Origin: Escherichia coli
Lineage (GTDB): Bacteria > Pseudomonadota > Gammaproteobacteria > Enterobacterales > Enterobacteriaceae
Reading direction: 5' to 3' (one strand)
DNA length: 64,000 nucleotides
NCBI RefSeq assembly: GCF_003018115.1
Contig: NZ_CP027457.1
The position numbers and the translations under genes are program-made. Below, in pieces: positions 48,671 through 49,345 of this stretch; the stretch's first letter is position 1, and every line of letters starts with the position of its first letter. The notes under the pieces were generated by a model. That model searched no databases, was not told where the DNA came from, and worked only from the letters and a program-made list of their open reading frames with translations.

Positions 48671-49237
48671 ATGCTTGAACTTAATGCTAAAACCACTGCG
48701 CTGGTGGTGATCGATTTACAAGAAGGCATCTTACCTTTTGCCGGTGGTCCACATACTGCCGATGAGGTAGTTAATCGCGCCGGGAAGCTGGCGGCGAAAT
48801 TTCGCGCCAGCGGTCAGCCCGTGTTTCTGGTGCGCGTTGGCTGGTCTGCCGATTACGCCGAAGCATTAAAACAGCCGGTTGATGCCCCTTCCCCCGCTAA
48901 AGTGTTGCCCGAAAACTGGTGGCAACATCCAGCTGCATTAGGTGCAACTGACAGTGATATCGAAATAATCAAACGTCAGTGGGGTGCGTTTTACGGTACG
49001 GATCTGGAGTTGCAATTACGCCGCCGAGGTATCGATACAATAGTGTTATGTGGGATCTCGACCAATATCGGAGTTGAATCCACCGCCCGCAATGCCTGGG
49101 AACTTGGCTTTAATCTGGTGATTGCCGAAGATGCCTGTAGTGCCGCTAGCGCCGAGCAGCACAATAACAGTATCAACCATATCTACCCGCGCATCGCCCG
49201 TGTGCGTAGCGTGGAAGAGATCCTCAACGCGTTATGA
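48671..49237 (+). CDS. yecD: Isochorismatase-family hydrolase YecD
   Basis: Start at [17 protein letters not shown]..., 188 aa. Confidence 0.9.
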
Positions 49238-49345
49238 TTTACATCGGTCTACCGCAATGGTCGCATCCTAAATGGGTGCGGTTGGGGATCACCAGCCTTG
49301 AAGAGTATGCCCGCCACTTTAACTGCGTGACGCAACATTTTTAAA
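49235..49345 (+). pseudogene. yecE: yecE 5' fragment, disrupted by prophage insertion
   Basis: ATG overlapping the yecD stop encodes [32 protein letters not shown], then the frame diverges (TQHF*) where K-12 YecE continues EGNTTLYALP. Confidence 0.7.

Follow-up and report, generated by a model that had tools for sequence, protein, structure and literature searches.

A junction in yecE of Escherichia coli that is almost certainly the tail-side attachment site of a lambda-like prophage

In the Escherichia coli contig NZ_CP027457.1 (RefSeq assembly GCF_003018115.1), the host gene yecE breaks off shortly after its start and is continued by phage DNA. This raises the question of which end of which kind of element adjoins the chromosome here, how the junction was formed, and what the part of the element that lies out of sight is likely to carry. 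We analyzed one strand of a 64,000-nucleotide stretch of this contig, referred to here as the window. Since the host sequence is unbroken up to position 49329, the break holds the core of a yecE attachment site, and the tail operon of the phage faces it, the junction is of the lambda attR type. We are therefore highly confident that positions 49311-49332 represent the tail-side junction (attR in lambda) of a lambda-like prophage, integrated site specifically in codons 29 to 32 of yecE.

The host side of the junction forms a stretch of 49 kb, from manX through yecD, in which window positions 3-49329 are colinear with positions 1,902,360-1,951,490 of the K-12 chromosome at ∼99% identity. The exception to this colinearity is the copy number of REP/BIME elements. 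In the intergenic array between znuB and ruvB (41861-42190), a 97-bp unit is repeated 3.4 times, which exceeds the K-12 number by two copies and is ordinary copy-number variation. Over the 1,000 bases on the upstream side, 983 are identical to K-12, and the genes next to the break are arranged as follows.

46589-48361, minus strand: aspS, a host gene
48671-49237, plus strand: yecD, an intact gene for an isochorismatase-family hydrolase, colinear with K-12 b1867 and carrying the same name in the relatives
49234-49329, plus strand: yecE', the first 32 codons of a host gene of the DUF72 family, severed by the prophage
49234-49344, plus strand: a residual open reading frame (ORF) of 36 codons, made up of 32 yecE codons, four phage codons (TQHF) and a stop

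The stop codon of yecD overlaps the start of yecE (ATGA). An earlier note on this DNA, made from the sequence by itself, had proposed that yecE follows K-12 for about 32 codons and then passes into phage DNA, with the core of the attachment site near 49.33 kb. When we aligned the window to K-12 yecE and counted matches without gaps, all 96 bases of codons 1 to 32 (49234-49329) were identical, the last of these host bases reading ...CACTTTAACTGCGTG, and only 23 of the next 96 bases agreed, followed by 56 of 300 over the next 300, which is the level expected by chance. The break in yecE is thus sharp, lies after 49329 and stands far above chance expectation, as the note had proposed; colinearity with an intact K-12 yecE does not resume downstream, and neither the 3' part of yecE nor yecN, cmoA or cmoB was found anywhere in the window. 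The 36-codon ORF had no match in Pfam, and the PGAP annotation of the relatives treats the same piece of yecE as a partial coding sequence that lacks its C terminus. The closest complete RefSeq genomes of E. coli are 99.4% identical over the 25-kb host flank and 98.2% identical over the phage part, and the lineage of the strain appears to be poorly represented among complete genomes.

We placed the attachment site by comparing K-12 attB, the window junction, and the int-side junction of the O178:H19 strain 2012C-4431 (NZ_CP024289), to which TTAACTGCGTG is the sole common stretch. The three sequences read ...CCGCCACT-TTAACTGCGTG-GAGGGC in K-12, ...CCGCCACT-TTAACTGCGTG-ACGCAACAT in the window and ...GCCGTCACA-TTAACTGCGTG-GAGGGCAAC... 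on the int side of 2012C-4431. At the mismatched base to the left of the core, the window has the host version and the int side of the relative has the phage version; at the mismatched base to the right, the window has the phage version, and the int side of the relative shows the reverse. This swap of the flanking bases between the two junctions means that both strand exchanges took place inside the 11-bp core. The site and the phage sequence next to it comprise the following features.

49311-49331: equivalent of the published 21-bp att, CCGCCACTTTAACTGCGTGAC
49312-49332: putative core-type Int half-sites around a 9-bp center, CGCCAC on the host side (49312-49317) and GTGACG on the phage side (49327-49332)
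49319-49329: common core of the att site, TTAACTGCGTG, which contains the strand exchange and occurs once in the window
49330-49488: tail-side phage arm of the att site
49489-49803, plus strand: dinI-like moron, with its coding sequence at 49555-49803 (Pfam DinI, 1.6e-17; PHROG 189)
49808-49909, plus strand: remnant of a YkgJ homologue, its last 33 residues, annotated in the relatives as a partial coding sequence

The position near 49.33 kb given in the note could thus be refined to 49319-49329. On the other strand, this core is the yecE att sequence 5'-CAYGCAGTTAA-3' (the reverse complement of TTAACTGCRTG) published by Delannoy et al. in 2017 (PMC5592225). The 21-bp equivalent agrees at 20 of 21 positions with the reverse complement of 5'-GTCATGCAGTTAAAGTGGCGG-3', the yecE att of Nakamura et al. 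2021 (PMC8112680), and corresponds to the annotation "duplication due to insertion" in LC567842. The statement in the note that yecE is a known phage integration site holds for Shiga toxin (Stx) phages, for which it is well documented (PMC5592225, PMC8112680, PMC3491183, PMC8065619); a passage in PMC3491183 credits the first description of an insertion in yecE, that of phage P27, to Recktenwald and Schmidt (2002). With the yecE Stx prophages of O145:H28 (PMC8112680) and O26:H11 (PMC5592225), the window thus has in common the host gene, the core TTAACTGCRTG and 20 of the 21 att positions. The dinI-bearing arm is likewise common to the O145:H28 phages, at 98.4% identity, although their core has an A (GCATG) where that of the window has a G (GCGTG).

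The half-sites suggest where an integrase would bind. When attP was rebuilt from the int side of 2012C-4431 and the window arm, it read CGTCAC-ATTAACTGC-GTGACG, a perfect 6-bp inverted repeat. LC567834 contains an uninterrupted counterpart of the rebuilt 421-bp attP with 98.1% identity; in that record, an Stx2a phage occupies the secondary site, derived from yecE, that a PPompW prophage carries. We also considered vB_EcoS_phi330 as a natural, contiguous yecE attP but rejected it, as it is of the mlrA type and has its core duplicated in tandem, which we read as the sign of a record assembled from a prophage.

On the phage side of the core, three phased TGYCCCATnnA repeats begin at 49444, 49455 and 49466 (TGTCCCATACA, TGCCCCATTGA and TGCCCCATAAA, respectively), their spacing of 11 bp corresponding to one helical turn. 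Counting both strands, the 64-kb window has only six copies of the motif TGYCCCAT, three of which are packed into 33 bp of the arm, a clustering that is far above chance. Two further copies were found in the int-side arm of NZ_CP024289, inside the int 3' end and overlapping the int stop region. Three TCGACGAAnnTCG repeats, at 49348, 49410 and 49420, lie between the TGYCCCAT repeats and the core. By analogy with lambda, the TGYCCCAT repeats are candidate arm-type Int sites and the TCGACGAAnnTCG repeats candidate Xis or accessory sites.

The dinI-like gene sits directly inside this arm and has the appearance of a moron under SOS control at the end of the prophage. Upstream of it we found a TTGACA -35 hexamer (49489-49494) and two LexA-box-like sequences, read from the sequence, CTGGTTATCCATACAG (49495-49510) and CTGTACATAACCACAG (49524-49539), the second of which is a perfect CTGT-N8-ACAG; the annotation of VT1-Sakai places a promoter and a LexA site in its homologous arm. 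The YkgJ remnant is a piece of host-like DNA at the end of the phage, with 65% amino acid identity to the C terminus of K-12 YkgJ (tblastx) and 73% nucleotide identity over 85 bp. We rejected its assignment to the site "attB-in-PP_2" of Nakamura et al., as it covers the ykgJ 3' end only and has no match to the intergenic region between ykgJ and ecpE by which that site is defined.

That phage DNA follows the junction, as the earlier note had it, was confirmed by PHROG and Pfam matches (DinI, tail fiber and assembly proteins, J, I, K, L, M and H) along the 14.7 kb from 49330 to 64000, which is lambdoid throughout. All genes visible in this part are intact and of the expected length.

50073-50747, minus strand: tail-fiber assembly protein (PHROG), of the same length as in the relatives
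50747-50956, minus strand: small ORF (PHROG), of the same length as in the relatives
50966-52678, minus strand: collagen-repeat tail fiber (PHROG), of the same length as in the relatives
52824-52964, minus strand: hok/gef-family toxin gene of 46 amino acids (PHROG 251, 3.4e-21), between the tail fiber gene and J, and named Hok/Gef in the relatives
53163-56849, minus strand: J, tail tip and host specificity protein, intact, 1,228 amino acids from a GTG start (PHROG 31, 1,544 bits)
56861-57760, plus strand: array of four tandem, diverged, noncoding units of ∼220 bp in the I-J gap, antisense to the tail operon
57763-64000, minus strand: I, K, L, M, H (tape measure), T, G and V (PHROG and synteny with the relatives)

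V is open through 63998 and runs off the end of the window. The tail genes, all on the minus strand, read towards the junction, in agreement with the claim of the note that the tail end adjoins the host as at lambda attR, and with the naming used by Delannoy et al. (PMC5592225) for yecE prophages, in which attL is the integrase side and attR the tail side. The published yecE Stx prophages have the same orientation, with their tail side next to yecD; in contrast to these, the window shows one junction only, and no integrase-like sequence was found in it. The phage part matches the tail modules of Stx prophages at 98% identity over 98% of its length; its tail module is a 98% variant that is identical to no deposited phage. 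The length of J is that of gpJ in the relatives. Next to the hok-like gene, no match to Sok was found in Rfam (48000-64000, at the gathering threshold).

The ∼900 bp between J (53163-56849) and I (from 57763) are free of ORFs and are filled by the four-unit array (56861-57088, 57093-57315, 57323-57541 and 57545-57760). On the plus strand, every unit has an invariant TTCACATTT followed by a -10-like hexamer (TATAAT, CATAAT, AATAAT, TATCAT or GTGCAT) and by GCGTTAC ... TCCnTAAnGTTAATCTTCAT, a stretch that is conserved, and closes with a Rho-independent terminator (CCCGCAG ... CTGCGGGATTTTTTT). This terminator is retained in 41 distinct sequences. Over 93 loci, 75 of them from IMG/VR, we counted one unit in 55, two in 10, three in 4 and four in 13; one copy is the usual number in related phages, and phage BP-4795 and Sakai prophage Sp15 have one copy each. 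Tree et al. (2014) listed EcOnc22, EcOnc23 and EcOnc24 of Sakai as Hfq-bound, mutually homologous RNAs from the plus strand; their positions place EcOnc22 in the I-J gap of Sp15, EcOnc23 in that of Sp14 and EcOnc24 in that of Sp11. The EcOnc22 row of their table gives a northern band of ∼85 nt that is destabilized without hfq. The table uses older genome coordinates, which at stx2B are shifted by about +135 to +142 relative to NC_002695.2. With this shift, which was measured at stx2B and applied to a locus at 2.9 Mb, the EcOnc22 peak falls on the predicted transcript of ∼90 nt between the -10 box and the terminator. The window thus appears, from these correspondences, to carry four paralogous copies of an EcOnc22-type small RNA (sRNA) gene.

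The units had no match in Rfam, either in 48000-64000 at the gathering threshold or in the I-J gap at an E value of up to 1, and we found no description of a four-copy array in the literature searched. Consensus folding of the units returned the terminator helix and a single weak helix of 5 bp, with almost no covariation, and a sigma-70 consensus scan of the I-J gap gave no more matches than shuffled sequence. We rejected the identification of the units with AgvB/AsxR (Tree et al. 2014) or with the Pas sRNAs (Zhu 2026), both of which are located near Q/PR' and the lysis genes and not between tail genes. The minus strand of 56900-56923, just upstream of the J start and inside the late operon, encodes a strong hairpin with a U-run behind it (ACAGGCACCCTCCGGGGTGCCTGT TGTTTTTGG); of the four units, only the first has this element, which is otherwise confined to single-copy phages.

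Relatives served to assess what lies beyond the window. Among 5,426 complete E. coli genomes, the same junction and arm were found in 103, and an uninterrupted yecE att region was found in 4,903. We inspected four of the 103.

2012C-4431: Stx1a, integrase intact
RM11911: Stx1a, integrase truncated at the N terminus, no xis annotated, IS100 insertion
RM7190: Stx2d, integrase intact
ST130: Stx1a, integrase intact

At its far end, each of the four prophages borders on 'yecE-yecN, preceded in three cases by xis and an intact int. The integrase of the relatives has 428 amino acids and contains an Arm-DNA-bind_2 domain (PF12167) and a Phage_integrase domain (PF00589); Xis matches DUF1233 (PF06806). 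The Stx1a prophage of 2012C-4431 (NZ_CP024289, 926,505-974,455) is identical to the window over the junction and arm (49290-49560) and 98.2% identical over the whole visible 14.7 kb, and we used it as the model for the unseen xis, int and 'yecE. It differs from the window in its J gene, which is frameshifted there and intact here, and in its host backbone.

From these relatives and the paradigm of lambda Int, we infer that a 428-residue tyrosine integrase with an N-terminal arm-binding domain recombined a CGTCAC-ATTAACTGC-GTGACG attP with yecE, guided by arm-type TGYCCCAT repeats, three of which would be those in the window arm. As a consequence of the insertion, yecE is split, with the 36-codon stub on the window side. 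The excisionase gene would adjoin that of the integrase, and both would occupy the distal prophage end, past the window. This end is expected ∼45 to 50 kb away in the order xis-int-core-'yecE-yecN, with xis-int followed by ...CGTCACATTAACTGCGTG joined directly to GAGGGCAAC... and the rest of yecE, then yecN-cmoA-cmoB. The regions for int, immunity, lysis and any toxin would then all lie beyond 64000, as the earlier note had proposed and in line with the four inspected relatives.

At the far junction of NZ_CP024289, the 3' part of yecE stays in frame with phage DNA, in a reading frame that is open from a TGA within the 3' end of int. Here the phage contributes ...CRHINCV, which mimics ...ARHFNCV of the host, and in the PGAP annotation a DUF72 protein of 265 amino acids begins within int. 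An expressible YecE with an altered N terminus may thus be left by the prophage.

The arrangement resembles lambda attR (P-O-B') in that the junction lies beside the tail-fiber end of the late operon, with int and xis at the opposite end, a position taken here from the relatives. A heterobivalent integrase and clustered arm-type repeats ∼120 to 150 bp from the core would, by analogy, be further points of likeness. In contrast to lambda, the target lies inside a protein-coding gene, which is truncated by the insertion, the att site has no sequence similarity to that of lambda, and the arm bears a dinI-like moron behind LexA-box-like sequences.

A real attR with its tail genes could also belong to a defective or partly deleted remnant, with a damaged int or with the early region or the far junction missing. 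Such damage is seen among the relatives, RM11911 having the same junction together with a truncated integrase and an IS100 insertion, and 2012C-4431 a frameshifted J; many prophages of this kind are defective according to Nakamura et al. (PMC8112680). However, the 14.7 kb in view contain no damaged gene and none of unexpected length, and in two of the four relatives int, xis and J are free of obvious defects. We consider a remnant rather unlikely, although the chance is a substantial one.

The expected cargo was assessed in the same manner. [quoted passage not shown] Tail modules recombine freely between phages, and the closest tail modules to that of the window sit in Stx2a phages integrated in mlrA, so that tail identity does not predict cargo. 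At yecE of O145:H28 strains, Stx1a phages were reported in 11 strains, Stx2a phages in 8, an Stx2d phage in 1 and non-Stx phages in 2 (PMC8112680). Judged by its relatives, the prophage probably carries an stx gene, most likely stx1 or stx2 downstream of the Q gene; the stx region, if present, would be located ∼15 to 20 kb past the window end. The prophage could instead be a lambdoid phage free of Shiga toxin genes; such phages occupy yecE in 2 of 21 occupied O145:H28 strains (PMC8112680) and are represented in the phage collection by PPyecE_EH1910. Moreover, none of the sequenced STEC lineages has a host backbone close to that of the window. Against this stands the presence of stx in every sampled relative with the identical junction, with the bias just described, and we regard a toxin-free phage as unlikely.

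The two closest tail modules (98.1 to 98.2% identity) are those of Stx2a prophages in JNE170426 and RM10042, next to btsS and hence in mlrA, not in yecE. From the first phage base onward, the arm of these mlrA phages differs from the window arm at 49330-49560 by one base. Their junction reads TGTCAC-GTTACGCGC-GTGACG, compared to CGCCAC-TTTAACTGC-GTGACG in the window. The mlrA (yehV) phages, among them VT1-Sakai (Sp15) and the two Stx2a prophages, thus have in common with the window the tail-side arm and the core half-sites GTCAC ... GTGAC, but their central bases are GTTACGCGC, whereas those of the yecE type are (A/T)TTAACTGC, which implies a different host target. The integrases of the yecE and mlrA types are 81% identical overall. 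Residues 1-75, with the Arm-DNA-bind_2 domain (PF12167), agree at 74 of 75 positions, but identity is 82% over residues 76-180 and 75% over residues 181-428, so that the core-binding and catalytic part is only 75 to 82% identical. Xis is the same at 84 of 85 aligned positions, and the int-side arms are only loosely similar.

By these comparisons, the yecE and mlrA modules have arm recognition and excision parts in common, the differences being those in the core center and in the Int region for core binding and catalysis. This arrangement fits retargeting by a few changes and explains the movement of tail and arm modules between phages at both loci. We tentatively propose, as a possibility that is less than even, that the two att modules are a natural specificity-switch pair. 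We came across no mention of this relationship in the literature searched, although it may be familiar to specialists.

Exchange of this kind could also mean that the junction is genuine but the prophage is a hybrid, in which recombination with a related prophage, for example one in mlrA, replaced the distal part or inverted a chromosome segment, and 'yecE is no longer at the far end. It is indeed in mlrA phages that the closest tail modules occur, together with an arm that is nearly identical, which shows that phages of this group do undergo such exchange. Since the window holds no direct sign of it, however, and 'yecE-yecN is present at the far end in all four sampled genomes, we consider a hybrid highly improbable. 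That the yecE-like sequence is instead a secondary site inside another prophage (attB-in-PP_1 of PPompW, which carries a yecE-like att beside the same dinI arm) is refuted, since attB-in-PP_1 has only ∼100 bp at 87% identity to yecE (PMC8112680), and yecE' in the window is 100% identical to K-12 and continues a chromosomal flank that is colinear with K-12 for 49 kb.

The site-specific insertion of a lambda-like prophage in yecE thus remains by far the best explanation, and the window junction is a further instance of a well-described case, its site, core, orientation and phage family being as published. It flags the source strain as a probable lysogen of a Shiga toxin phage, and the exact coordinates of the att core should be useful for typing the occupancy of yecE and for the design of junction PCRs. 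The comparison of yecE-type and mlrA-type modules and the four-copy sRNA-like array are mildly useful by-products. If the two modules are indeed a specificity-switch pair, a handful of changes would retarget toxin phages between two loci, and swaps of tails and arms between these loci could supply substrates for chromosome rearrangement.
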